This document shows, piece after piece, positions 16,295 to 51,995 of a stretch of 64,000 bases of DNA; within the stretch, counting starts at the first letter, position 1, and every line of letters starts with the position of its first letter. The stretch lies in the NCBI GenBank assembly GCA_041660525.1, contig JBAZWD010000009.1, forward strand, positions 2,829-66,828. The letters run 5' to 3'. A program made the translations under genes and the position numbers. The DNA comes from Legionellales bacterium. Lineage in GTDB: Bacteria; Pseudomonadota; Gammaproteobacteria; JABCZS01. The notes under the pieces were generated by a model. It searched no databases. It was not told the DNA's origin and was given only the letters and a program-made list of their open reading frames with translations.

Positions 16295-17281
16295 TTGTTT
16301 ATGATCGTGCAAAATCAGATGTTGAGCTGTTTCTTCCCCACCACCGTGGTTTTTATTGATGATAATACCCATCATCTGGAAGCGATGCTCTCAACCATTA
16401 ATATGCAACATGCAGTACCTAAATTATTTAGCGACCCGGTGCACGCTGTGGGATTTATTAACCACCATCCGTCTATTTTGCAACGCTCTTCACAAATTCA
16501 ATATGATAATGATATCCGCAGCTTTCACCAAAAAATAATCGGTCATGGCGATCAACGTTTTCATGAACTCACCGTTGTAGTTTGCGATTACGCTATGCCA
16601 CAAAAAAACGGTTTGGAAGTTTTACAAGATATTAAAAAGCGTGAACTTAAAACCATTATGCTTACCGGTGAAGCCAGTGAAACCCTAGCGGTTGAAGCAT
16701 TCAATCGCGGTTTAATCGATCATTTCATGCATAAAGAAACACCAGATTTTACCCAAACAATTAATAATACTATTTTATCGCTGCAACAAGATTATATTTT
16801 TAGAGAAACCGGTTTAATCGTTGATAATATTATTCTAGGCAAGCTCCCCAGAAGTTGCGCCCTCACTGATCCGATGTTTTTTAAATTATTCAATGAAGTC
16901 GTAAAAAAATGCAACATCATCGAATATTATTTACTTGATGATGAAGGCAGTTATTTAATGCTCGATCAAAAAGGACAAGTTTTCATTTTAGCTATTTTAG
17001 AAGCTGTCGGCCTAGAAGCCATGGCGCAACAAGCTATCGATGAATTTGCACCCGATAATATTGTAAAAGCATTAGAGAGCAAAAAATACATGCCTTTCTT
17101 TTATTCAAAAGAAGATGCCGCAACACCGGCAACTGAATGGAGTAATTTCTTATATCCAGCCCATGCTTTAAAAGGACAACAAACTTATTATTACAGCGTG
17201 ATTCCGCACAGTAAGATTCATCAGCCTAAGATACATCCTAACCAAACGTTTGAGCATTTCCTGGAACATGCGCATGATTAA
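16295..17281 (+). CDS. Response-regulator receiver protein with an unassigned ~190-aa C-terminal domain
   Basis: Receiver landmarks: VVFIDDN, VVVCDYAMPQKNG (putative phospho-Asp at about residue 98), IMLTGEA, HFMHKE. No HTH, GGDEF or other output domain is recognisable. TTG at 16295, ATG at 16301. Confidence 0.75.
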   Translation: MFMIVQNQMLSCFFPTTVVFIDDNTHHLEAMLSTINMQHAVPKLFSDPVHAVGFINHHPSILQRSSQIQYDNDIRSFHQKIIGHGDQRFHELTVVVCDYAMPQKNGLEVLQDIKKRELKTIMLTGEASETLAVEAFNRGLIDHFMHKETPDFTQTINNTILSLQQDYIFRETGLIVDNIILGKLPRSCALTDPMFFKLFNEVVKKCNIIEYYLLDDEGSYLMLDQKGQVFILAILEAVGLEAMAQQAIDEFAPDNIVKALESKKYMPFFYSKEDAATPATEWSNFLYPAHALKGQQTYYYSVIPHSKIHQPKIHPNQTFEHFLEHAHD

Positions 17282-18878
17282 CTTGCACTGAAGTCAAAGC
17301 ACTGGAAACACTTGCGGTAGTAGTTGGCGAAGTAGATGTAGATGTCTTATCTTCCCATTTCGTCAGTAGTGTTGATTTTTTTGTAAAATTACTTACCGCC
17401 TCGTTACCCGCTGTAAGCGATAAAGTCGCTAAACCACCCACTTTTACAAACTCAGCTTGTTCACTGGGTACTTGACCATCATTCGATTGCCCTGCAACAG
17501 CGGCCGCATTTAAAAGTTGGCCAAATATTCTTATGCGAAATTCATTTATTTTTTCCCAAAAGCTTACATTTGGAATTATTTCTTCAGCAAGCAAAGCACT
17601 TGCTGCAGTTTTCATGGCAAAAGGTGTATTTGCAACCATAGCACCATAGGTGATTATTTCAGAGGTAATATTACCTATTTGCTTACCATAAGGCCCTTTT
17701 AATATTTCTTCAGATATACCGTTACCCACAGTGTCGCCACCTGAAGATAAAACGCCTTCCATAGCGGCAAATATAGGAACAAATAATAAGACTAAAAAAA
17801 CTTGTATGAATTTAACACATAGTAAAACTATTTCTATAACTGCGGTGGCAATGATTCTCAAGCTATCTTTTAATGCTGCCCATTTTTTATTCCATGAAGA
17901 ATCCAATAGTATGTCTAAAATATTTAGAGCTAAATACAGGCATCCTTCCCAGGCATTTGCCCAATAAGCTTTAAATCCTGTTACTAAAGTTTTACAAAAA
18001 ATAGCTAATGCGTTTATCGAAAATATACCATCGCCATTATATTGTTCTTTTAATTTGGCATCTAAATGCAATAAGCTAGCCCAACTACGGGCAGCTAACA
18101 ATCCGTAGATAATTCCAAAGAGTGCTAAGATAATACCCATAAATATACAAGCAGGTATCACAATCCAAGGGCTACTCAAAGCTAAAATAATCGGGAAAAC
18201 CCATTTGCCAAAAACTCCGACAACCGCAATAACATAAAAGACGCTTAATACACAACCTGCATTTAAAATTCTAAAATGATTTTCAGTAAACTCTGTTTCA
18301 ACACCATCATCCGATTTATTTTTTTTGAAACCCTCCGCCCAACTTAAATTATAATCTTTGTCCATAGTTACAAATAATTTAATTACTGTTTCTCCAAGTT
18401 TATTAAACTGTAAATTATAATTGATAAAATAACTGGCTGAAAAAAGTAATAATCCTATTGGTAAGATGTAATAGCCAAAACTTAATAAAAATATAGAAGC
18501 CAAAATTAAAAGAAAAAATTTAATATTTTCTTTTTGATTTTTTGTTAGCTCAATCTTTGCTTTTTTTTCATCTGTTATCTTATCTTTTTCCTTTTGATCA
18601 TCTGTTAGTCTAATTAGGGATAATATTTTATCCATTATCGTTTGGTAAGCAATGGCAATTAAAATTAAAAAAACGATAGGAGGAGCTGCCACCCAGGGCA
18701 TTGTTAAATACCTTAATAAAACCTCTTGCGTAACCATAGAAGTCGAATTCGTACTAGCGCACAATCCAAATACAATATTGGCTTTATTTTGATTGAGCTC
18801 AATGAATATTTGCCAATCTTTATTGGCTTTTATTCTAGCTTCAATTGTAGGATCCAAGTGGGGCATATAGCACCGCAA
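17238..18878 (-). CDS. Orphan multi-pass membrane protein (about 8 TM) with S/T-rich C-terminal tail
   Basis: 546-aa ORF with several long hydrophobic segments. KE-rich loop (DDQKEKDKITDEKKAK). Tail is KTSTSTSPTTTASVSSALTS. TTG at 18878; the first ATG is at 18866. Confidence 0.7.
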   Translation of the reverse strand: MRCYMPHLDPTIEARIKANKDWQIFIELNQNKANIVFGLCASTNSTSMVTQEVLLRYLTMPWVAAPPIVFLILIAIAYQTIMDKILSLIRLTDDQKEKDKITDEKKAKIELTKNQKENIKFFLLILASIFLLSFGYYILPIGLLLFSASYFINYNLQFNKLGETVIKLFVTMDKDYNLSWAEGFKKNKSDDGVETEFTENHFRILNAGCVLSVFYVIAVVGVFGKWVFPIILALSSPWIVIPACIFMGIILALFGIIYGLLAARSWASLLHLDAKLKEQYNGDGIFSINALAIFCKTLVTGFKAYWANAWEGCLYLALNILDILLDSSWNKKWAALKDSLRIIATAVIEIVLLCVKFIQVFLVLLFVPIFAAMEGVLSSGGDTVGNGISEEILKGPYGKQIGNITSEIITYGAMVANTPFAMKTAASALLAEEIIPNVSFWEKINEFRIRIFGQLLNAAAVAGQSNDGQVPSEQAEFVKVGGLATLSLTAGNEAVSNFTKKSTLLTKWEDKTSTSTSPTTTASVSSALTSVQVNHAHVPGNAQTFG

Positions 18879-19077: not shown

Positions 19078-19917
19078 ATGACTGCCCAAAACCATCTTGA
19101 AATTACCACCTTAGTAGCCCATGCCTTAAAAGAAGATATCGGCCGCGGCGATTTGAGCGCACAATTAATTGCGCCCCAAGCACAGGCGCGGGCGCAGATT
19201 TTGTCTCGGGAAGCAGCTGTATTGTGTGGGGTTGATTTTGCCAAGGAAGTATTCAATAAAGTTGATCCGAGTATTAAGCAAGATTGGCAGCTTAAAGATG
19301 GCGATAAACTTTTGCCTGATCAAATTTTTTGTACGCTTGCAGGGCCTGCACATAGTATTTTGACTGCTGAGCGCACTGCGCTTAATTTTTTGCAAACATT
19401 GTCAGCAACTGCTACACGTACGGCTTATTTTGTGGATTTAATTAAAGATACAAAAGCTACCATTTTAGATACCCGTAAAACAATACCCGGCCTTCGCGAT
19501 GCACAAAAATATGCGGTGCGCATGGGTGGTGGCACTAATCATCGACATGGTTTATTTGATGCGATTTTAATAAAAGAAAATCATATTAAAGCTTGTGGAT
19601 CAATTACGAATGCTATTCAAACTGCGAAAGAGAAATTTTCAGATATAAAAATAATGATAGAAGTGGAAAATCTGCATGAGCTCCAAGAAGCTATTCGTGC
19701 TCATGCGTTACATATTATGTTAGATAATTTTTCATTAGAAAATATTATTAAAGCAGTGAATATGAAACCTGCGAATGTTAAGCTGGAGGCTTCTGGCGGT
19801 ATTAATGAAGGCAATATTCTGGCCATTGCACAAGCTGGGGTTGATTATATTTCCCTAGGTACGTTAACTAAAGATATTAACGCTGTTGATCTCTCGTTAT
19901 TATTTAATCAAACCTAA
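19078..19917 (+). CDS. nadC: Nicotinate-nucleotide pyrophosphorylase (quinolinate phosphoribosyltransferase)
   Basis: 279 aa. N-terminus AHALKEDIGRGDLSAQLI and overall NadC-like sequence. Confidence 0.95.
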   Translation: MTAQNHLEITTLVAHALKEDIGRGDLSAQLIAPQAQARAQILSREAAVLCGVDFAKEVFNKVDPSIKQDWQLKDGDKLLPDQIFCTLAGPAHSILTAERTALNFLQTLSATATRTAYFVDLIKDTKATILDTRKTIPGLRDAQKYAVRMGGGTNHRHGLFDAILIKENHIKACGSITNAIQTAKEKFSDIKIMIEVENLHELQEAIRAHALHIMLDNFSLENIIKAVNMKPANVKLEASGGINEGNILAIAQAGVDYISLGTLTKDINAVDLSLLFNQT

Positions 19918-21867
19918 CATGGACACTGATTTATTTTTTACAGCATACTCATAGATTGCTATATAAATCACATCAATCCTATCGCCTTTATTCATTTGAG
20001 CAATAAAATCCTGTGCATTTTTCAATTCATCTGTACTATGAAGCTTATTGTCTGGTAACATTAAAAATTTATTTAATCGTTTACCTTCATCAGATATCGT
20101 CTTAGAGGACGAAACATTTTGACCTAAAAGTAAATCATGCTCTGAAGCCTTTTCTAAATCCCCATAGATAAATTTTAACGCTGCTAATATACCAAGGCCC
20201 CGATCTTCAATATAAAACACTTTCGTGTGGCGTTGGATAGCGCGGTAAATCTCAATTACTTTTCTTAAAAAAACGATTTTATCGTCTTCTTCCTTCAAAT
20301 TATCAAGTGGACGAATTTCAGCTTTAATAAGTTTATCAACCACATTTGTGAATAATTCAATATCCCATCCCGGGGTGGCCAATAATGCTTTTTTTGCAGT
20401 TTCAAAATGGTTTTTAGCTAAATGATTTTGGTATTGCTTATAAAAATTATTAACATATGGCGCAAAAGCACCGCCTGTTGAGATTGAATAACACAAAGCA
20501 TTCGGCACTGGTCCAACCGAGTCATTAAGAATCTTATGCAAGAAAAAACCACCTGTATAGGCGAATGTACTTAATAAAAACATTGAGGATAAATTGTAAG
20601 GGTTGAAATTATCTGTGCCAAATGAAACGCACGCTTGCATTAATGCTCTCACTTCAGGCTTAACTTGCTGCGCGCTTAATATAGGTTCTTTTTTTTCAGG
20701 TTGTTTCTCTTTTGGTTTTTTGACAGAATTGTCTTTGATAGATTGTGGAACAGCTTTCAACTCTATGACTTCTTTTTCAAAAAAGAAAGTGTAATCTTGA
20801 TCTTTATCTTCACTCGCATTTTTTAAGCTGCCATCATATCGCGCTACAATTATTTCTAAAACTTCTTTTAATGTTTTATTTTCAAGCTGGACTGCATGGT
20901 TCTCCATAAATGATAAAATTTTAAGTAAAAATTTTATTTGAGCACCTTTGCCATTTAGAAAATCTTTTTGCTTGTTAGGTGTACTTTCATAAACATTGAT
21001 ATAATTTAGAAAAGATTCGATTTTCCATTGGTCATCAACTTGCAGTGATCTTCTTGCCTCTTTTAAAGGTTTTAACTCTTCTTCTCGATTCTTTTTAACT
21101 TCTTGCTCTTTAAGCTTTCTTTCTTCGGCACGCTTATGACGCTCTGCTTCGTCGTTTATTTTTTGTTCACGCTTTTCTCTTTGCTCTTTTTGCTCTTTTT
21201 CTTTGCGTGCTTTTTCATTCTGCTCTTTATCTTTGCGCTCTTGCTCTTCTTTTTCTTTACGTTCTTTTTCTCTGCGCTCTTGTTCTTTACGTTCTTTCGC
21301 TTCTTTTTCTTTTTGTTCTTTTTCTTTACGCTCTTGTTCTTTACGCTTTTGCTCTTCTTTTTCTTTGCGTTCGTTTTCTTTACGCTCTTGTTCTTTGCGC
21401 TTTTGCTCTTCTTTTTCTTTGCGTTCGTTTTCTTTACGCTCTTGTTCTTTGCGCTCTTGCTCTTCTTTTTCTTTGCGTTCGTTTTCTTGACGCTCTTGTT
21501 CTTTGCGTTCTTGCTCTTCTTTTTCTGTTTTTTCTTTATCCAGTTTAGCGGTCAGCTCGTTATTCCTTCGCATTATTTCTTTATGCAAGAGTGAATTTAA
21601 ATTTTTATATACTGGATTTTGGTCTCTTTCTAAATTTGCATAGCTACCCATGACGTTTCGCATTTCTTCCAAAGCAGGTAGAGGGATCTGTTGATGATCT
21701 TTTCCGTCATAAGCTACCCAAAATGCATTTAAATACCAAGCTTGTACATAAAGCTGATCTATAGAATTAAGTTTCTTTAATTTCATTCGATAAGCGTTTA
21801 TCCCATCGTTTGTTGTACCCATGACGAGGTCTTTTAAGTAATTTTCCCAAGCTTTAAACGAAACCAT
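19900..21867 (-). CDS. Orphan 655-aa protein with a central E/K/R-rich tandem-repeat helix
   Basis: Long ORF. Residues about 108-270 are almost entirely E, K, R, Q with an 18-aa period (KEKEEQERKEQERKENER). Globular-looking N- and C-terminal regions. Confidence 0.8.
   Translation of the reverse strand: MVSFKAWENYLKDLVMGTTNDGINAYRMKLKKLNSIDQLYVQAWYLNAFWVAYDGKDHQQIPLPALEEMRNVMGSYANLERDQNPVYKNLNSLLHKEIMRRNNELTAKLDKEKTEKEEQERKEQERQENERKEKEEQERKEQERKENERKEKEEQKRKEQERKENERKEKEEQKRKEQERKEKEQKEKEAKERKEQERREKERKEKEEQERKDKEQNEKARKEKEQKEQREKREQKINDEAERHKRAEERKLKEQEVKKNREEELKPLKEARRSLQVDDQWKIESFLNYINVYESTPNKQKDFLNGKGAQIKFLLKILSFMENHAVQLENKTLKEVLEIIVARYDGSLKNASEDKDQDYTFFFEKEVIELKAVPQSIKDNSVKKPKEKQPEKKEPILSAQQVKPEVRALMQACVSFGTDNFNPYNLSSMFLLSTFAYTGGFFLHKILNDSVGPVPNALCYSISTGGAFAPYVNNFYKQYQNHLAKNHFETAKKALLATPGWDIELFTNVVDKLIKAEIRPLDNLKEEDDKIVFLRKVIEIYRAIQRHTKVFYIEDRGLGILAALKFIYGDLEKASEHDLLLGQNVSSSKTISDEGKRLNKFLMLPDNKLHSTDELKNAQDFIAQMNKGDRIDVIYIAIYEYAVKNKSVSMLGLIK
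21205..21528 (-). repeat. Six tandem 54-bp (18-codon) repeats inside the 655-aa ORF
   Basis: Units start at 21205, 21259, 21313, 21367, 21421 and 21475. Units at 21367 and 21421 differ by 1 nt. The unit at 21475 has 3 mismatches to the 21421 unit, and the unit at 21313 has 4 mismatches to the 21367 unit. Confidence 0.9.
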
Positions 21868-24170: not shown

Positions 24171-25464
24171 GGCGATGAATGAGTATCGCAGCACGTTGTG
24201 TATTGATATTTAATGATTCTAAATCTAGCGTTTCATCTATCGTATGCGTACAACAACCTGTAGGACCTAAACCGCCTAAGTTTGCAGGAACTATGCTCGC
24301 AACATAATTGATATCCCCCGCACCACGAAATTTAGGATCAGTTGCAGTCACTTCGCCGTAACCTAAATCTACACTCACTTGATTATATAATGCTAACAGA
24401 TCATTATTATTTTCTGTCGGCGGCATAGGTGGCATACCATCAACAAAAGAAATCGTAGATGTTGTGCCCGGCAGCGGTAATAATGTTGCATCAATTAAAG
24501 TTTTTTTAATGATGGCTTTTTCTTCTAGCGTTAAAAATCGAATATCGCCTTTGGCCATGGCTATTTGTGCAACAACATTATCTTTGCCACTGCCAATAGC
24601 AGTGGATTGTGCTTTATTTATTTCAGCTTGTGTGCCACCTATTATAAGGCCAGGATTAAACGTAGCGTAGGGTTCATCACCCAAATGCATGCTGCCATAA
24701 TTTAAAACTCTAGCCAATTCAAAAATAGCACCAAAGCCTGTATCACCATGGAATATTTTAGATGAGTGAGCAGATACACCGGTAGATTTTATTTCCCAAG
24801 AACTGATACCGCGACGTGAAGTAGTTGCTTCTCGCATATGGGCTGCAGGTTCAAAGTCCAAAGCAACATCCATCCCTTGCGCAGCAGCAATTAAAGGTGC
24901 ACGTGAAATAGCTGCAGGTTTTCCGGAACTTTCTTCATCACCGACTAAAGCCACAGTGATTGTTGTGTCTTCAAGTAATCCTTGTGCATTTAATGCTTTT
25001 AACGCATAAAGAATAGAAACGATTCCTGCCTTATCATCAATAATCCCAGGCCCCTTAACGGTATTACCTTCTTTTTTAAACGTTTGAAACGTAGAATTTT
25101 TAGGAAAAACAGTATCTAAATGCGCAATTAATAATAAACGTTTTCCTCTCGAGCCTTTACGCGTCAACAATAATGTGCCCGCGCGATGCATATCTGCAGG
25201 TGGCGTATTCCATAGACTTTTAAAACCCAGCGCTTCGAATTCTTTTTGCACAAGCTTGCCCACTTCATACACGCCAGCGACATTATCCGTGCTGCTATTG
25301 ATGTTGACTATTTTTTCAAGAAAGAACAAAGCTTCAGATTGATGCTTATCGATATAAGCTATCATATCTTTTTCGGCAGCAAAACTTGCAGGAAAAAAAC
25401 TAAAGAGTAAAAACGCAAAAATACCAAGCATTACCCAAGGGGCAGGTTGAGTATGTTGCTTCAT
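24154..25464 (-). CDS. Secreted M20-family metallopeptidase (carboxypeptidase G2-like)
   Basis: Signal peptide. AHLDTV, GPGIIDDKAG and VGDEESSG metal-ligand motifs. Confidence 0.85.
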   Translation of the reverse strand: MKQHTQPAPWVMLGIFAFLLFSFFPASFAAEKDMIAYIDKHQSEALFFLEKIVNINSSTDNVAGVYEVGKLVQKEFEALGFKSLWNTPPADMHRAGTLLLTRKGSRGKRLLLIAHLDTVFPKNSTFQTFKKEGNTVKGPGIIDDKAGIVSILYALKALNAQGLLEDTTITVALVGDEESSGKPAAISRAPLIAAAQGMDVALDFEPAAHMREATTSRRGISSWEIKSTGVSAHSSKIFHGDTGFGAIFELARVLNYGSMHLGDEPYATFNPGLIIGGTQAEINKAQSTAIGSGKDNVVAQIAMAKGDIRFLTLEEKAIIKKTLIDATLLPLPGTTSTISFVDGMPPMPPTENNNDLLALYNQVSVDLGYGEVTATDPKFRGAGDINYVASIVPANLGGLGPTGCCTHTIDETLDLESLNINTQRAAILIHRLTQAQ

Positions 25465-26345
25465 GTGGATGCTCCAGAAAAATATTTATCAATTAGATTC
25501 TTTAAAATTGCATCAGTTTGCTGATCAGGGATGCCGGAGTAGTCACTAGGACGAAAGTGCATTTGAAAAGCACTCACGACATTCCGTGTTTGTTGATCTA
25601 GTTTGCCGGTTATTTCTATATTATAGCCATAGCGCGCCAGATTTTCCTGTAACAAGCGTATATTGATTTCTTCCTCAGGATCATTTTTTAATAGTTCTGC
25701 AACGGAATCTTCATCATACCAAGCCCCTATTCCAGCCTGAGCAAGTTTTTCCCAAGGAAATAAAGGACCCGGATCAATACGAATATTACCGCCACGCGCT
25801 TTGATATTAGGGGTAATATCGCTGTGTCCAACAATATGGGTTGGGTCTATGTCATATTTTTCAACTAAATAGTGTAGTAATTTTATTAAAACATCAATTT
25901 GATACTCTGAATAGGGATAAAATATACGCACATTATTTTCAACTCTAAAGCCTGGATTGACAAGTTCAATACCTAAAGATGAAGTATTTAAATTAATTTG
26001 CCCATCTCTCTCATGACCTTGCCAATAGCTTAGACCCGCTTGCGCTGCTTTTAAATCATCAGGTACTAATTGATAAATCAACTTTTTCCCTTGAATAGGC
26101 TCTTCTGGAATTAAATAATGTGCACTCACATGACCTTGCGTTAACGTGTTTAAAGATGCCTTAAGTGAACCATGCGTAAAATGCAAAACAATATATTGAA
26201 TCCTTTGCCCAACAGCTTTAGCTGTATAGCTTTCGTCCAGGTATATGCCTTCGTTTTCTAATTCAGTATTTTTATGAAAAAGCGCAAAGCCCAATAAAAA
26301 TAAACAAATCAAGAAAGCAAGTAATAAATAGATACGTTTTTTCAT
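25461..26345 (-). CDS. N-acetylmuramoyl-L-alanine amidase (amidase_2, AmiD/AmpD-like) with C-terminal peptidoglycan-binding domain
   Basis: Signal/anchor segment, IVLHFTHG and GHSDI motifs. C-terminal LQENLARYGYNIEITGKLDQQTRNVVSAFQMHF is PG_binding_1-like. Confidence 0.82.
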   Translation of the reverse strand: MKKRIYLLLAFLICLFLLGFALFHKNTELENEGIYLDESYTAKAVGQRIQYIVLHFTHGSLKASLNTLTQGHVSAHYLIPEEPIQGKKLIYQLVPDDLKAAQAGLSYWQGHERDGQINLNTSSLGIELVNPGFRVENNVRIFYPYSEYQIDVLIKLLHYLVEKYDIDPTHIVGHSDITPNIKARGGNIRIDPGPLFPWEKLAQAGIGAWYDEDSVAELLKNDPEEEINIRLLQENLARYGYNIEITGKLDQQTRNVVSAFQMHFRPSDYSGIPDQQTDAILKNLIDKYFSGAST

Positions 26346-26386
26346 TGTATAGCTCGTTTATGGATTATTTTTATAATACTATAAAA

Positions 26387-26791
26387 TTATGTATTATCAA
26401 TAGGATCCATAGAAATCGCATAATGCCCTGGATATTTCTTAATCGCGCCAGTGGCTATATCGACAAAAAACGTCGGCCAAAATAAGATATCCAATAATGC
26501 AAGCGAATCAAAACTATCATTGATAGAACCTGTATAATTTTCATAACCATTTTTATCACATTTAATTTGCAAAGGCGCATTCCCCTTTGGAATCATCACT
26601 GCATCTGGATTAGACTTAATATGATAAATCGTGCCACTGGAATCTGTTACATTGCAGCTCACATGATTTAAATCTTGTTTAGTTTCTTCATCAACTGCGG
26701 TGAAAGTGACTGATTGATTTGATCCGTGAAAAACGGTAGCACAACTTGATAATAACAAAGAAGACATCACTAACGATAGTGGTTTAAACAT
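26387..26791 (-). CDS. Small lipoprotein, paralog A
   Basis: Lipobox LLSSC. Roughly 60% identical by eye to the ORF at 30561-30968. Shared motifs IPKGNAPLQ and ILFWPTFFVD.ATGA..KYPG. Confidence 0.75.
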   Translation of the reverse strand: MFKPLSLVMSSLLLSSCATVFHGSNQSVTFTAVDEETKQDLNHVSCNVTDSSGTIYHIKSNPDAVMIPKGNAPLQIKCDKNGYENYTGSINDSFDSLALLDILFWPTFFVDIATGAIKKYPGHYAISMDPIDNT

Positions 26792-26929
26792 ATTTTTTCC
26801 TTTTTTTAGATTAATCCTGCGAAGTGATGATTCTACTAAATCATTTGATATAAATGCAATATAATATTTTTTTCATTGAAAATATGATGTATTTTCAAAA
26901 TTTAATCATTAAAGATTGATTTTATATTA

Positions 26930-27700
26930 TTATGCAGGATTTTCAGAATCAATATAAACACCAGAAATTTTAAATTTTTCTTCAATGATTTTCATTAAAG
27001 CCTGTATTCCAAATTGTTCAGTAGCATGATGACCGCCCGCTAACATGACCATATCTGATTCGCGCGCTTCGTGCCAATCATGCTCACTCATTTCGCCAGT
27101 AATATAAGCATCTAAACCACTGGCTAATGCAGACGCCCATTGTGAATTTGCACCGCCAGTAATAATACCTATGGAATTGATGACTTTTTCTGGGTTAGGT
27201 GTTGAAAGTAATATGGGATGGTTTAAAATTTTTTCTAAGGCCTGTGAAAGTCCTTGTGCAGTCGTAGTAAATTCACCTTTAACGCCCATATAAGAGCCTT
27301 TCATTTTACCTTCGCAAAAATGCTGGATATTTATCATTCCTAATAATTTTGCTAAACTGGCTGCATTTCCCATTTCAAGATTGCCATCTAAAGGAAGATG
27401 ATAAGCAAAAAGATTAATGTTATTTTCAATAAGCGGTTTCACACGTTTAGCAAATGGCCCAGTAATAGTTTTGGTTCCATGAAATTTCCAAAACAAACCA
27501 TGGTGCACAATCAAAGCATCCACGCCCTCTTTTATTGCTTTTTCGACAGAATCTGCAGTAGCAGAAACTGCAAATGCAATTTTATTAATCGTATCTTTAC
27601 CCTCTATTTGCAAGCCATTGGGGCAATAGTCTTCAAAGGCTTCGGGTTTTAAGAGCGTGTTGAGGTAAGTTGTAAGTTCTGAGCGAGATACTGTTGCCAT
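26930..27700 (-). CDS. Nif3-family metal-binding protein (YbgI / GTP cyclohydrolase 1 type 2 homolog)
   Basis: 256 aa. VHHGLFWK and AGGHHATE motifs. Confidence 0.9.
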   Translation of the reverse strand: MATVSRSELTTYLNTLLKPEAFEDYCPNGLQIEGKDTINKIAFAVSATADSVEKAIKEGVDALIVHHGLFWKFHGTKTITGPFAKRVKPLIENNINLFAYHLPLDGNLEMGNAASLAKLLGMINIQHFCEGKMKGSYMGVKGEFTTTAQGLSQALEKILNHPILLSTPNPEKVINSIGIITGGANSQWASALASGLDAYITGEMSEHDWHEARESDMVMLAGGHHATEQFGIQALMKIIEEKFKISGVYIDSENPA

Positions 27701-27765
27701 TGCTATAGAGCTCCATTGAATATTGAGTAACCTTTAAATATTAGCCTAATTTTAATACATTTGAT

Positions 27766-29094
27766 TTATTTATAAACAGGTAAAACCGTTAAAACGCGCG
27801 CTCCAGGTGCTTGATGTTGGCTTTGCTGTTGCGAATACTGTAATAAAGATGTACGTTCAGTCATGGTTGAGACTTGGGTCTCAAGTTCTTTGCTGATATC
27901 ATCCACTTCATCTGGTGGCAAAATCATTTGCATATCTTTAAACTGCGCAGCCATTTCTCGTGCATCAAGAATGCTAAATGTTTCTTCACAATTTTTCACA
28001 TTATTTGATAAAAATAAATTCCAAATAATAATAAATAATTCCGCAATTTTAAAATTGGGTATAACTGCAAATAAAACACCGGAAATGGCAACAAATACTC
28101 CTAGAAAAGTGCAAAAATCATCACAAGAATCAAATAATTCTTCATTAACATCTAAATAAAATTTAAGCGGCACTGCGAATGAGCATAATGAAATTAGACT
28201 TTGAACAATTTGTACAGAAGCATTCAGCTTAGGATTATGTCTAGCAAAAGGATTTTGATAAAATTGATCGATTAATGTATCTGGCAAATGATAACCAAAC
28301 AGACCCGCTAAAATCAACCAAGGCATCGTTAAAGTAGTGCCTAAAAAAATAGAAGCAACCAATCTATCGCTTTTATTTTCTGGTAAAAAATATTTCAAAG
28401 CTCCTATATTATTATCTGGATTATTCAACAATAAAATATTGATCACACAAAATGGACCGTTATAAAATAATGGCAATAAAATAGAAGAAGATATTTTTAT
28501 CCATCGAGAAATAGCTTGATGAGGGATAGCAGCACCATTAAGTTCATAAGCTTTAAGCGCTTGTAGAAACTTTTGAACGTTGGGCTTTAAATAACTTGAT
28601 GAAATAGATAAATCTTGTGCAAGAGAATAAAAGGTATAACTTGCCATGATAAAATTAGCAACAAAAACAAGCTTACCCTCAACAGGATCCTCTGTGTTTA
28701 ACATAAGCGGTAATGCAGCCAGAAAACCTGTTAAGATAGATAATGACAATCGAATCGGTATTTTTTTATTATTTTTTTGTTCTTTATAAAAAACATTGTT
28801 TTTACCCTGCACTGCTCTTTGGATTGCAGAAAAAAGCTGAGCGCTGGTGAAAATCACAATTATTAAATTAGTGGCACCATTAGGAATAAAAAAGGCCTTA
28901 GCCTCAGCTGAAGAGCAATTGAAATTTTCCTCACATAATAATATCGTTTGCTGTTTACTCAAAAAAATGGCAAAGCCACCGAGTGTGCAGGAAAATAGAG
29001 TATTAGCCAGTAACCAAGATATTTCTTTGCCCGTTAATTTTTTGGGTTTATTTAATTCTGACATTAATGATTCAATTAATGCGTCATGCGGCAT
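27766..29094 (-). CDS. Orphan multi-pass membrane protein (442 aa)
   Basis: Long ORF with many hydrophobic segments and a Q-rich C-terminal tail (LLQYSQQQSQHQ). No family recognised. Confidence 0.7.
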   Translation of the reverse strand: MPHDALIESLMSELNKPKKLTGKEISWLLANTLFSCTLGGFAIFLSKQQTILLCEENFNCSSAEAKAFFIPNGATNLIIVIFTSAQLFSAIQRAVQGKNNVFYKEQKNNKKIPIRLSLSILTGFLAALPLMLNTEDPVEGKLVFVANFIMASYTFYSLAQDLSISSSYLKPNVQKFLQALKAYELNGAAIPHQAISRWIKISSSILLPLFYNGPFCVINILLLNNPDNNIGALKYFLPENKSDRLVASIFLGTTLTMPWLILAGLFGYHLPDTLIDQFYQNPFARHNPKLNASVQIVQSLISLCSFAVPLKFYLDVNEELFDSCDDFCTFLGVFVAISGVLFAVIPNFKIAELFIIIWNLFLSNNVKNCEETFSILDAREMAAQFKDMQMILPPDEVDDISKELETQVSTMTERTSLLQYSQQQSQHQAPGARVLTVLPVYK

Positions 29095-29216
29095 AGGGTT
29101 TTTCCTGACATGAATTCTGTTTTTAATAAGATATAATCATTAAAATAATGCCTGAAAATAGAGCATATGTAAAGAATGGTCTTATCCGTTCTAATAGACA
29201 AGCTTATGCTAGTCAG

Positions 29217-29227
29217 CCCCCCCCCCC
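29217..29227. repeat. Homopolymeric C11 tract in a divergent intergenic region
   Basis: Direct count: cccc (29217-29220) plus ccccccc (29221-29227). Confidence 0.95.
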
Positions 29228-29263
29228 TGCGTGTTTAATAATATTTTCTTAAATAAGGAATAA

Positions 29264-30301
29264 ATGATGCCCACCTCATTTCCGACTATTGAAAACCATC
29301 TTCGCGAAAAATCATCTGCATTTTCAGTTAACTTCTTTATCGATGTTTTGAAAGCAGATTTTCAATTGCAAAAATATGAAAACTTGTTGCTTCAAGGAAG
29401 AACAACGCTCGATAACATTTACGATGCCGCACGCAAGGAACAGTTGATCAATGACTTTTCACTCCGCACGAATGCATTTAATCATTTTTTAAGGTCATTA
29501 GCTCAAGATCCATCTACTGCGCCTATAGTTAATCAATTTAAAAATTTGACTCATTTCGAGAGAGTTCAACAATTTTCAACTTTCAAAGCAAGGCAAGATG
29601 CTAACCATCTAAATATCAAACATCTAGAAGAGCTTTACACTGAAAGTCTGGGCGTATATTTAAATATCGATTTTGTGTTTGAATATTATGTTTTATCTGC
29701 AATGCCGCTCACCATGACAGCTGAAGAGCAGTCTCAATTTTTATCTAACGTCAAAGATACAATACAAACATCCCTTAACCAAGCAAACTATTTAATTTTC
29801 AAAGAAAATTCTAAAGTAGATAAAGAAAAAATGATCCAGTTTGCATCGGTTCTAAATGAATTAGGCTGGACTAAATATTCAAATGTCGCAAAACAATTTA
29901 TCTTACCTATTTTAAATGCTGAAATTGTATGCTCTAGCTTTAGAAATAAATATCTATATTTACTCGCACTTAAAGATCAAGTAGAAAATAACAAATGGGA
30001 CCACTTGAAAAATTTTTATGGCGGCAACAAAGATACACCTTCTGAAATTTCAAATTTACGTAATAAATTGAAATCACTAGAAGCTGCGTACAAGCAAGCA
30101 ACAACTGGCAATCAAGGATCATTAAATCAAATGTTCACTGAAGTTGGCACGATTATTAATGAAGAAAGAGGATTCATGCGTCATGATGGTGATACTGCAG
30201 ATCTTTATATTGAATATAAGGAAAAATATAATCAAATGAACGGAGGATCTTCTGTTCAATCCAATAATACATCGCCGTTTTCACAGCTCAGGAAACAGTA
30301 A
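29264..30301 (+). CDS. Orphan soluble, probably all-helical protein (345 aa)
   Basis: ORF with AAGGA SD about 8 nt upstream. No motif recognised. Polar S/N/Q-rich C-terminus. Confidence 0.7.
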   Translation: MMPTSFPTIENHLREKSSAFSVNFFIDVLKADFQLQKYENLLLQGRTTLDNIYDAARKEQLINDFSLRTNAFNHFLRSLAQDPSTAPIVNQFKNLTHFERVQQFSTFKARQDANHLNIKHLEELYTESLGVYLNIDFVFEYYVLSAMPLTMTAEEQSQFLSNVKDTIQTSLNQANYLIFKENSKVDKEKMIQFASVLNELGWTKYSNVAKQFILPILNAEIVCSSFRNKYLYLLALKDQVENNKWDHLKNFYGGNKDTPSEISNLRNKLKSLEAAYKQATTGNQGSLNQMFTEVGTIINEERGFMRHDGDTADLYIEYKEKYNQMNGGSSVQSNNTSPFSQLRKQ

Positions 30302-30560
30302 ATGTAGTCATGCCTGGCACAGTTGTGAGTTGAATATCTGACCGGCGTTTTAAGGCTAACAATCTCAACATAAAGTAGATTAAAACCATATCTCATTGAT
30401 ATATAGGAACTTTAAACACTCTACTCGTAGGGGGGTCTAGAATAACATGCCCAAATCTATACTAGAAACCAACCCATGCCTGACACCAATATGTGCTCGT
30501 AACTGAAAATATGATAATATGCTGGTCTTTTAAACTAATTGCAAGCGCAAGGAAAATAAC

Positions 30561-30968
30561 ATGCATAAAATCATTCTTACATCCATTAGTCTCATTTTCC
30601 TATCAGGCTGCGCTACTGTTTTCAGCGGCACTGATCAAGCTGTCAATGTAACAGCGGTAGATCAAGAAACAAAAAAAGATTTAAAAAATGTACATTGCAC
30701 TATTATCGATGACGAAGGAGCGACATATCAATTAGTCTCAAATCCAGGCGCGGTTGTTATCCCCAAAGGCAATGCACCATTACAAGTTAATTGTCATCAA
30801 AATGGATATCATACCTATTCCGGCGTAATCAATGATAGCTTCGATGCTGTGACATTAATTGATATCTTATTTTGGCCAACTTTTTTTGTTGATTGGGCAA
30901 CCGGTGCTATGCATAAATATCCTGGACAACATTCTGTTGTGATGGCGCCTGAGACTACAGAGTCATAA
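30561..30968 (+). CDS. Small lipoprotein, paralog B
   Basis: Lipobox FLSGC. Paralog of 26387-26791 in inverted orientation. Confidence 0.75.
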   Translation: MHKIILTSISLIFLSGCATVFSGTDQAVNVTAVDQETKKDLKNVHCTIIDDEGATYQLVSNPGAVVIPKGNAPLQVNCHQNGYHTYSGVINDSFDAVTLIDILFWPTFFVDWATGAMHKYPGQHSVVMAPETTES

Positions 30969-30981
30969 GCTTGAAGATATT

Positions 30982-31001
30982 GATGGGGTAATGACCCCGT
31001 C
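30982..31001. terminator. Hairpin between the convergent lipoprotein B and DUF2971 genes
   Basis: GATGGGG-TAATGA-CCCCGTC, a 7-bp stem including one G-U pair. No U-run. Confidence 0.3.
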
Positions 31002-31016
31002 ACAAAAGATCAGTTT

Positions 31017-31841
31017 CTACTGCTCATTTCCATCAGGATAACCATAGATTTTCTTATACCGAGCAATGTCTTGTTCATAATTATTATATTCAATAACATC
31101 TATTTTATATTCACCAATTGAAGGCACTGCAACATAAAACTTCGGATTTATTTTTCCCAAAGTTTGAATCACTTGTTCTACTCGTCGCTTTGAAATATTA
31201 AAACCAAAAATTATTTCTTTAATACTGTTGTGAACCATATCTCGAGTCAATCCAGCTGAAGTTTTATCTTTAAGTAGACCGCAACTGTCATAAACTCGCC
31301 ACTCTTTTTCTTGTGCAAAGGTTGTATGTTTTGACTTAAATACAGAACTCCAATCTTTCCCGACATTTCCATGATTAATTTTATAAGCTCTTTTTTTGTA
31401 ATTAACTTTTATCAGGCTTGAGTGGTTTTTGAATATTTCAGAATCAAACCCAATACATATTCCTTTAAAACCATCGGCATAATGTGAAAACATGTAAATA
31501 GAGTCCTTTGATTCATTAAGGCAAAATACACCATTCTCGATTATTTTTGCCATAAGAATATGGTTAATTGTATTTTGCTCTGCTGATAAGTGGTATAGAC
31601 CATCATTTCCCTCTTTTAAATCCAATAGCTCAATTGCTTTCTCAGTTACACCAGCTTTTGTGCAGCTCAATTCTTGCAATGAAAAAAAATGTTCAAATGG
31701 ATCGTTAAATTGATGAACTTTTGCAAAATAAATCTCGCCACGAGACAATATGGGTTCCGTGTGCTCGTGAAAAAAATCATTATTTTTAGGATTATCTACC
31801 GCTCGATATTTATATAGCACTGGGGGTAAATCATCGCACAT
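31017..31841 (-). CDS. DUF2971-family protein
   Basis: N-terminal LYKYRAVDN......IYFAKVHQFNDPFE pattern is characteristic of DUF2971. 274 aa. Confidence 0.7.
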   Translation of the reverse strand: MCDDLPPVLYKYRAVDNPKNNDFFHEHTEPILSRGEIYFAKVHQFNDPFEHFFSLQELSCTKAGVTEKAIELLDLKEGNDGLYHLSAEQNTINHILMAKIIENGVFCLNESKDSIYMFSHYADGFKGICIGFDSEIFKNHSSLIKVNYKKRAYKINHGNVGKDWSSVFKSKHTTFAQEKEWRVYDSCGLLKDKTSAGLTRDMVHNSIKEIIFGFNISKRRVEQVIQTLGKINPKFYVAVPSIGEYKIDVIEYNNYEQDIARYKKIYGYPDGNEQ

Positions 31842-31871
31842 ACTATCTCCCTATCGTTATTAACTTCATTC

Positions 31872-31914
31872 TGCCGACAGAGCTTACGTCCGCCTGATCT
31901 ACTGATTACGAATC
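31872..31914 (-). other. Degenerate copy of the 3' half of tRNA-Thr (att-like remnant)
   Basis: TGCCGACAG (9/9) and CTACTGATTACGAATC (16/16) are identical to 32935-32943 and 32963-32978. The 18-19 nt between them (T-arm) diverge. Flank TTCATT(C/A) is also shared. Confidence 0.75.
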
Positions 31915-32059
31915 TGAGTTAAACAACAAATGGTAACACATCAGAACAAATAACAGCAACCAAATCAAAGGGTTAAAATTAAATGCTTTTTATCTTATGC
32001 TGAAGAGTGTTACTAATTGTTATCTCTGAGTGGCCATGAGTTCCACATGAAGAGATATG

Positions 32060-32088
32060 TGTTATAATCTTATTAATAAGATTATAAC
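32060..32088 (+). promoter_or_regulatory. Extended -10 promoter embedded in a perfect 28-bp palindrome (operator) upstream of the AbrB-type antitoxin
   Basis: TGTTATAAT at 32060-32068. GTTATAATCTTATTAATAAGATTATAAC (32061-32088) equals its own reverse complement and ends 9 nt before the ATG at 32098. Confidence 0.55.
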
Positions 32089-32097
32089 GGAAATAAG

Positions 32098-32361
32098 ATG
32101 ATGAACATACTAGCAACAACAAAAATGTCTTCAAGGGGGCAAGTTGTGATCCCTGAAGATATTCGCAAACAACTTCACTTAGAAACAGGCACACAATTCG
32201 CTGTAATTGCTGAAAATAATGTAGTAATATTGAAAATCATTACCCCTCCTAAACTCAGCGAGTTTAAGGGAATATTGAATAAAATACAAAAAGCAGCCAA
32301 AGCAGCAGGACTCACCCCAAAAGATCTAGAAGAAGTGATTAAGGAAGATCGTAAAAAATGA
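32098..32361 (+). CDS. AbrB/MazE/SpoVT-family antitoxin
   Basis: 87 aa. SSRGQVVIPEDIRKQL looped-hinge-helix motif. 4-nt overlap with the PIN gene. Confidence 0.85.
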   Translation: MMNILATTKMSSRGQVVIPEDIRKQLHLETGTQFAVIAENNVVILKIITPPKLSEFKGILNKIQKAAKAAGLTPKDLEEVIKEDRKK

Positions 32362-32780
32362 TTCGGATTGTATTAGATACAAACGTATTTGTATCTGGTT
32401 TATTTTGGTCTGGACCTCCAAGCCAAATATTAGATGCATGGGAAGAAAAAAATTTAACTCTTGTATTCTCCCTAGATATCATGGAGGAATATAAACGAAT
32501 AGCACACGCTTTAGCACATAAGCGTGAGCTTCATCAAGACATGAATGTCTCTGCCGCCCTAGAACTTATTGCAATACATGGCGAGCTAGCCTCGCCCATT
32601 TCCCTTGATAAATCAATCTCACGTGATCCTGATGATGATAAATTTATTGCTTGCGCATTAGGCGCTGATTGTTTCTTGATTGTGAGTGGTGATAAAGATT
32701 TATTAGATATTTCTGGATATGCGGGGATTAATATAGTGAAGCCAGGAGAATTTTTGAAGCATTATTTATCTAAAGAGTAA
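32358..32780 (+). CDS. PIN-domain toxin (TIGR00305-like)
   Basis: 140 aa. VLDTNVFVSG start, later DPDDDKFIACAL and SGDKDLL motifs. Confidence 0.85.
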   Translation: MIRIVLDTNVFVSGLFWSGPPSQILDAWEEKNLTLVFSLDIMEEYKRIAHALAHKRELHQDMNVSAALELIAIHGELASPISLDKSISRDPDDDKFIACALGADCFLIVSGDKDLLDISGYAGINIVKPGEFLKHYLSKE

Positions 32781-32839
32781 CACTACTGTACAAATTGTAA
32801 AAAAATTCAGTATTAACCGTAGATGGATTCGCTGATTAT

Positions 32840-32868
32840 TAATTATGCAACAGGCTGTTGCATAATTA
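32840..32868. terminator. 29-bp palindrome downstream of the PIN gene (terminator or recombination-site candidate)
   Basis: TAATTATGCAACAG-G-CTGTTGCATAATTA, 14-bp perfect arms. No U-run. Lies between the TA module and the tRNA-Thr 3' end. Confidence 0.35.
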
Positions 32869-32934
32869 CTCAGTGTACAATTAATGCCCCAGCACAGTGC
32901 TAGTACAACACATCTCATCTCGTTAATTTCATTA

Positions 32935-33007
32935 TGCCGACAGGGCGAATCGAACGCCCGGCCTACTGATTACGAATCAGTTGCTCTACCGACTGAGCTA
33001 TGTCGGC
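32935..33007 (-). tRNA. tRNA-Thr (anticodon CGT)
   Basis: Reverse complement GCCGACATAGCTCAGTCGGTAGAGCAACTGATTCGTAATCAGTAGGCCGGGCGTTCGATTCGCCCTGTCGGCA. Resembles E. coli thrW. CCA is not encoded. Confidence 0.95.
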
Positions 33008-51817: not shown

Positions 51818-51995
51818 AGTAAACTCCTTGGGTTGAACCTCCATTCATCCCACTATTCCACCCTTTTGCAAGGCACCCAGAACAGTGTGTCGATAAATGT
51901 GCGGGATATTAAAAACACATATACGCAAACGCGCTAGACTTTATACCATAACTACCATACAATCTCAACTTTATAACCTATAGATACTTACCACA

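Follow-up and report, generated by a model that had tools for sequence, protein, structure and literature searches.

In Neisseria meningitidis, homopolymers located between the -35 and -10 elements of porA (poly-G) and opc (poly-C) tune the spacing of these elements and consequently expression, while in Haemophilus influenzae, TA repeats within the shared divergent region of hifA and hifB are able to affect both genes. Treponema pallidum, an organism with few other switching systems, carries poly-G tracts upstream of its tpr genes, with tract length modulating transcription. More generally, G/C runs of about 9 or more slip at high rates, and rare lineage-specific genes near variable regions are the usual setting of contingency genes. 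In the poly-C tract of the Bordetella fim3 promoter, the gain or loss of one C acts as a switch, expression is lost altogether when a single C is deleted, and single cultures contain a mixture of tracts ranging from 11C to 16C (PMC10172299). A 2025 review reports long repeats from hundreds of species and points out that the repertoire of many organisms may comprise no more than one or two such loci (PMC11868660). For Legionella pneumophila, an unstable, reversibly switching LPS phenotype has been described, in a study that discusses slipped-strand repeats only as a mechanism of Haemophilus and Neisseria (PMC2525541). That study was the sole return of our full-text literature searches for repeat-mediated phase variation in Legionella, which yielded no case of it. 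The L. pneumophila LPS switch was reportedly traced in later work to the excision of a roughly 30-kb element.

The locus described here lies within a 64-kb stretch of DNA that was analyzed over its full length (hereafter, the window). A direct read of the window finds an uninterrupted run of 11 C on the plus strand at 29217-29227 (G11 on the minus strand) in the context GCTAGTCAG-C11-TGCGTGTTTAATAATATT, at exactly the coordinates given in a preliminary description of this DNA. The same description had placed all other G/C runs at no more than about 6 nt, and indeed the longest of these are C5 and G6 (the latter at 30430-30435). The GC content of the window is 38.8%, and that local to the tract is ~34%. 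Independent-base and first-order Markov models agree that only ~0.002 G/C runs of ≥11 nt should be expected in the window. As an empirical control, we collected 840,727 bases from 87 bacterial loci that are unrelated or distantly related, among which the longest G/C run was 9 nt, or 7 nt in the control loci having <45% GC (525 kb). As the tract is the sole G/C run longer than 6 nt in 64 kb and none longer than 9 nt occurs in 840 kb, base substitution alone is insufficient to account for it. The C11 tract is real and far beyond chance. It also reaches the length at which G/C repeats become capable of slippage (about 8-9 or more) and contains no interruption, and from the general behavior of G/C runs, it is probably hypermutable. 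The tract was recovered a second time in the Logan assembly of SRR18595301, a run for which the literature search returned nothing; in this assembly, contig L001 (8,307 bp) is identical to window positions 24684-32990, C11 included. Outward extension of the Logan contigs gained only ~1 kb per end. Both assemblies were probably built on the same reads and are therefore uninformative with regard to tract heterogeneity. A second long G/C tract was found neither in the window nor in ~53 kb from homolog-bearing or related genomes (L002, L004, and L089), and thus there is no hint of a general use of repeats in this lineage.

The tract is situated in a divergent intergenic region of 169 nt (29095-29263; about 34% GC), which matches the gap reported earlier, and the two flanking open reading frames (ORFs) are likewise as previously described. 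On the minus strand, a 442-aa multi-pass membrane protein is encoded at 27766-29094 with its start at 29094, while on the plus strand, the gene nearest to the tract encodes a 345-aa protein at 29264-30301 and is preceded by an AAGGA motif at 29256-29260, with a second ATG at 29267. The distance from the tract to the start of the 345-aa gene is only 36 nt, compared to 122 nt to the start codon of the 442-aa gene. Thus, the tract is found in the non-coding regulatory region of a gene. A frameshift switch could be ruled out: at C9, C10, C11, C12, and C13, none of the frames crossing the tract joins either flanking gene, and in-frame stops precede the start codons of both. With the tract lying outside of the coding frames, a transcriptional rather than a frameshift action remains. 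A known RNA element at the tract was similarly rejected, as no Rfam match was obtained with E values up to 10, and in the predicted RNA fold, the C run is unpaired and no notable structure appears (z-score of only -2.2). Inspection of the gap by eye for PmrA-like or CpxR-like sites found no convincing tandem site.

The 345-aa protein is soluble and predicted to be all-helical. It has no match in Pfam, NCBIfam, PADLOC, or PHROG, and a word-indexed search of 5.8 billion proteins returned only the protein itself. When 1.84 billion cluster representatives were scanned in full with HMMER, one credible relative emerged (P0005), a 344-aa protein with 23% identity over the full length (E = 1.8e-11), which is itself unique in the searched proteins. 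No G/C tract is present in the 47 nt visible upstream of the P0005 gene (L085). The 442-aa protein contains six or more hydrophobic segments and is also without a Pfam, NCBIfam, PADLOC, or PHROG match; it has three homologs (P0002-P0004) of 61-65% identity, which reside in three different genomic contexts (L002, L003, and L004), none of which has a G/C run upstream of the homolog. Scans of plasmids by tblastn and of viral contigs detected no relatives of either flanking gene, and the AlphaFold models of both proteins were unusable (pLDDT 39 for the 345-aa protein and 33 for the 442-aa protein). Both genes had been considered orphans. For the 345-aa gene, this is almost fully borne out, its single relative being only 23% identical, while it applies less to the 442-aa gene, given its three homologs and an additional fragment. 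This fragment, which is 178 aa in length and shares a 90%-identity cluster with the 442-aa protein, is encoded on a contig of a metagenome-like assembly (L088; GCA_020049755.1, contig JAHZTO010919107.1, positions 625-1178) having 92% DNA identity to window positions 29151-28572. The homology stops at 29151, which is 56 nt upstream of the 442-aa start and short of the tract position. Taken cautiously, the tract would therefore be tied to the 345-aa side of the junction. The gene copy on this contig is truncated at residue 174 and joined to an unrelated reverse-strand ORF, and the other end of the contig looks chimeric. This only near-identical fragment of the 442-aa gene thus reflects either chimeric assembly of the metagenome or disruption of the gene in that relative.

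A second genome carrying the locus was not found in the searched protein collections, and a flank-pattern scan and a family scan of metagenome contigs were both empty. In a set of about 15 billion proteins clustered at 90% identity, each neighbor of the tract was a singleton, namely the amidase, the lipoprotein, NIF3, a second lipoprotein, DUF2971, the pilin, and PIN. One relative (L089) shares ~78% DNA identity across the rpsB-to-dnaE operon, and its synteny is lost just past the tRNA-Thr gene. As synteny is lost on that side of tRNA-Thr, the stretch between this gene and the tract locus seems to be variable, as suggested by this one comparison. The tRNA-Thr gene is located at 32935-33007 on the minus strand. 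Its 3' half recurs in degenerate form, over 55 nt, at 31860-31914, 1,063 bp from the gene, forming a direct repeat (31860-31914/32923-32978) of about 88% identity. The 1-kb islet between the two repeats contains a MazE-like/PIN toxin-antitoxin pair (32098-32780), and the arrangement is the att-like footprint of a mini-island. Beside the islet is a DUF2971 gene (31017-31841, minus strand) that matches the PADLOC candidate defense family PDC-S31 (E = 2e-36) as well as phrog_1762. Two paralogous small lipoprotein genes (26387-26791, minus strand, and 30561-30968, plus strand), which are inverted relative to each other and share 58% protein identity, bracket the NIF3 gene, the 442-aa gene, the C11 tract, and the 345-aa gene; no long inverted repeat was found between them at the DNA level. 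Elsewhere in the window, two large minus-strand ORFs of 546 aa (17238-18878) and 655 aa (19900-21867) belong to no Pfam family and sit amid housekeeping genes. The latter contains 6.2 copies of a 54-nt unit with 90% identity (21194-21526), which corresponds to an in-frame 18-aa repeat and is possibly a variable-number repeat.

With regard to the origin of the DNA, a t44 RNA (Rfam RF00127, 72 bits) is found upstream of rpsB at 51832-51921 on the minus strand, which fits a gammaproteobacterial origin. The best match of the NIF3 protein in species-representative genomes is 75% identical and belongs to an unclassified Gammaproteobacteria MAG, whose ORF list gives no hint of a shared gene order, and for LepA, PyrH, and DegQ, the proteins that cluster with them at 90% identity derive from MAGs labeled only "Gammaproteobacteria bacterium". 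No Dot/Icm genes were present among the window proteins scanned against Pfam or among the gene calls of the fetched contigs. An affiliation with the Legionellales is plausible from the composition and the many orphan genes.

Next to the tract, the preliminary description had noted a promoter-like arrangement, with TAGTCA (29210-29215) as the -35 element, TTTAAT (29234-29239) as the -10 element, and the C11 run inside of an 18-nt spacer (29210-29239, plus strand). The coordinates and the spacer length are correct. TAGTCA agrees with TTGACA at 4 of 6 positions and TTTAAT with TATAAT at 5 of 6, the missing one being the A at position 2, which is the reason that a consensus scan omits the pair. 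In a weight-matrix scan, a heuristic built on approximate frequencies for E. coli sigma-70 promoters, the pair obtains 3.8 bits and is only the 11th-best site of the plus strand, while the best sites found after mononucleotide shuffling of this 169-nt gap average 7.7 bits (sd 1.6). Hence, its promoter-like score is no better than chance. Altering the tract to C10 or C12 would change the score to 4.9 or 2.2 bits, respectively. Moreover, over all tract lengths between C4 and C16, the ceiling for the best overlapping promoter on either strand is 6.8 bits, and the scan gives no support to the view of the tract as the spacer of a recognizable -35/-10 pair of the porA/opc type. The weak hexamers lower the support for a spacer model and do not refute it, as known poly-C promoters such as that of Bordetella fim3 also lack a good -35. 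A/T-rich hexamers resembling a -10 element, namely TTTAAT itself along with AATAAT and TAATAT, occupy 29234-29244, between the tract and the ATG.

Higher scores were obtained elsewhere in the gap. On the plus strand, CTGACA-16-TAAGAT (29105-29132) reaches 9.1 bits and a perfect TATAAT (29132-29137) reaches 7.7 bits; if either were used, the mRNA would have a 5' UTR of roughly 120 nt, with the tract beginning ~75 nt from its 5' end. The best minus-strand candidate, for the 442-aa gene, is TTTACA-17-CATTAT (29173-29145). Relative to this promoter, the tract would span positions of about -79 to -89, and its candidate -10, CATTAT, lies inside the block conserved with L088. A further -35-like element, CTGACT (29216-29211, minus strand), directly abuts the G11 run and is followed after 17 nt by TAGAAC (6.6 bits). 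The candidates that outscore the TAGTCA/TTTAAT pair are still within the shuffled range, and as no candidate beats the shuffles, the promoters cannot be placed from sequence alone. Taken cautiously, the presence of CATTAT in the conserved block suggests that the core promoter of the 442-aa gene lies away from the tract.

From these results, the tract is a plausible contingency locus, most likely one acting on the 345-aa gene, and our tentative preference is for C11 as a contingency repeat that acts on the transcription of this gene (a probability of roughly 0.45). Slipped-strand mispairing during replication would add or remove one C. With just 36 nt separating the tract from the ATG, any transcription start located downstream of the tract would place it in the spacer or in the -35 region, the sole other option being a start upstream of it. 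In the former case, one-base changes would shift either the spacing of the hexamers or an upstream element's phase, as a result of which the 345-aa gene would be transcribed more or less strongly in a heritable and reversible manner, and the divergent 442-aa gene might also be affected. Both the location of the promoter and the effect on expression are features that we infer in this model. In its favor, the tract is real, extreme for this sequence, intergenic, and only 36 nt from the ATG, and both flanking genes are rare, lineage-specific, and near the variable region at tRNA-Thr. Several observations speak against it, as both assemblies, which probably share the same reads, give only C11, no sigma-70-like promoter spanning the tract exceeds chance from C4 to C16, equal or better promoter candidates exist upstream of the tract, and homologs of both the 442-aa gene (L002-L004) and the 345-aa gene (L085) have no tract upstream. 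A more specific version, in which the tract serves as a one-base-step switch of a lineage-specific gene in a little-studied or uncultured AT-rich gammaproteobacterium, possibly a Legionellales-like intracellular one, and possibly controls a secreted effector, would make it the first repeat-based contingency locus of that group and strikes us as rather unlikely.

A second explanation, which is possible, if doubtful, is that the tract is hypermutable and functionally silent, having expanded through slippage or originated where acquired DNA was joined, and that its length simply drifts within a long 5' UTR or an inert spacer, with no meaningful consequence for either gene. The best plus-strand promoter candidates at 29105-29137 are upstream of the tract, which would turn it into 5' UTR, the candidate -10 of the 442-aa gene is about 70 nt away within the L088-conserved block, the C run is unpaired in an RNA fold without notable structure, and the homologs manage without such tracts. 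However, an uninterrupted 11-mer of a minority base in DNA of 34% GC is very unlikely to persist without selection or a very recent origin, and the tract occupies exactly the 36-nt zone that a proximal promoter would need to use.

An action upon the 442-aa gene seems improbable to us. In this case, a change in the tract would shift an upstream activator site or UP-like element, in helical phase or in distance, with respect to the promoter of that gene, and the 345-aa gene would not be the target. The G11 run does abut the -35-like CTGACT (29216-29211) with TAGAAC at 17 nt (6.6 bits), membrane proteins are typical phase-variable products, and repeats in a divergent promoter region that control both genes are known from H. 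influenzae hifA/hifB. Nevertheless, neither the minus-strand promoter with the highest score (29173-29145) nor the conserved block extends as far as the tract, the relatives of the gene work without a tract, and its start codon is 122 nt away.

It would be more surprising still if the tract acted through a leader peptide, with its length setting translational coupling or poly-proline stalling ahead of the 345-aa gene. A speculative 34-codon upstream ORF (29148-29252, plus strand) can be read through the tract (…SQPPPPA…), starting from an ATG at 29148 and ending with a stop at 29250-29252. At C12 or C9, its stop would shift to the TAA at 29261-29263, which abuts the ATG at 29264, while at C10 the stop would shift upstream; a possible and more unusual variant of the switch is thus one in which the stop of a poly-proline leader frame slides onto the 345-aa start codon. 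If the TATAAT at 29132-29137 were used, only a few bases of mRNA would precede the ATG at 29148, which would make translation near-leaderless. Just 3.9% of shuffles contain an equally long ORF running through the tract, but this figure is weak and was obtained after the fact, the ORF has no Shine-Dalgarno sequence, and the promoter is only a candidate. We know of no described precedent for a tract mechanism of this kind. Lastly, an artifact of sequencing or assembly, with the real tract being shorter or absent, is hardly credible even though homopolymers are prone to error and one read set may underlie both assemblies, because two different assemblers produced the same 8.3-kb sequence with C11 amid unique sequence and both flanking genes intact, and an 11-mer is too short for a false k-mer join.

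If the tract does vary and control either gene, it would represent stochastic bet-hedging by slipped-strand mispairing in a lineage without a prior report of it. It would also mark both of the flanking proteins as being under fluctuating selection from a host, predator, or phage. As such a mechanism is textbook knowledge, what would be gained is another taxon and another gene, rather than a new principle. If the tract were invariant or without effect, it would be a mere compositional oddity at a junction of acquired DNA.

A comparison with the described systems would place a C11 contingency repeat of the 345-aa gene among them as follows. Neisseria porA and opc have mapped transcription starts and documented variation, unlike the present locus, in which the hexamers score no better than chance, and Neisseria possesses dozens of such loci, whereas a single tract was seen here. 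The hifA/hifB repeat is a dinucleotide repeat spanning overlapping, mapped promoters, as opposed to a mononucleotide run between promoters that are candidates only. As in the T. pallidum tpr genes, the tract is an intergenic G/C homopolymer just upstream of a gene, although T. pallidum has multiple paralogous loci with variation shown among and within strains, compared to the single locus in a single genome here. In Bordetella pertussis, the tract sets the distance from the BvgA activator site to the -10, as opposed to a promoter that is a candidate only, and the product is a fimbrial subunit, which the product here is not. Like the tracts of B. pertussis fim2/fim3, however, the tract reported here is a poly-C run of similar length (11-16 C in Bordetella) that has no good -35 and is located a few tens of bases upstream.
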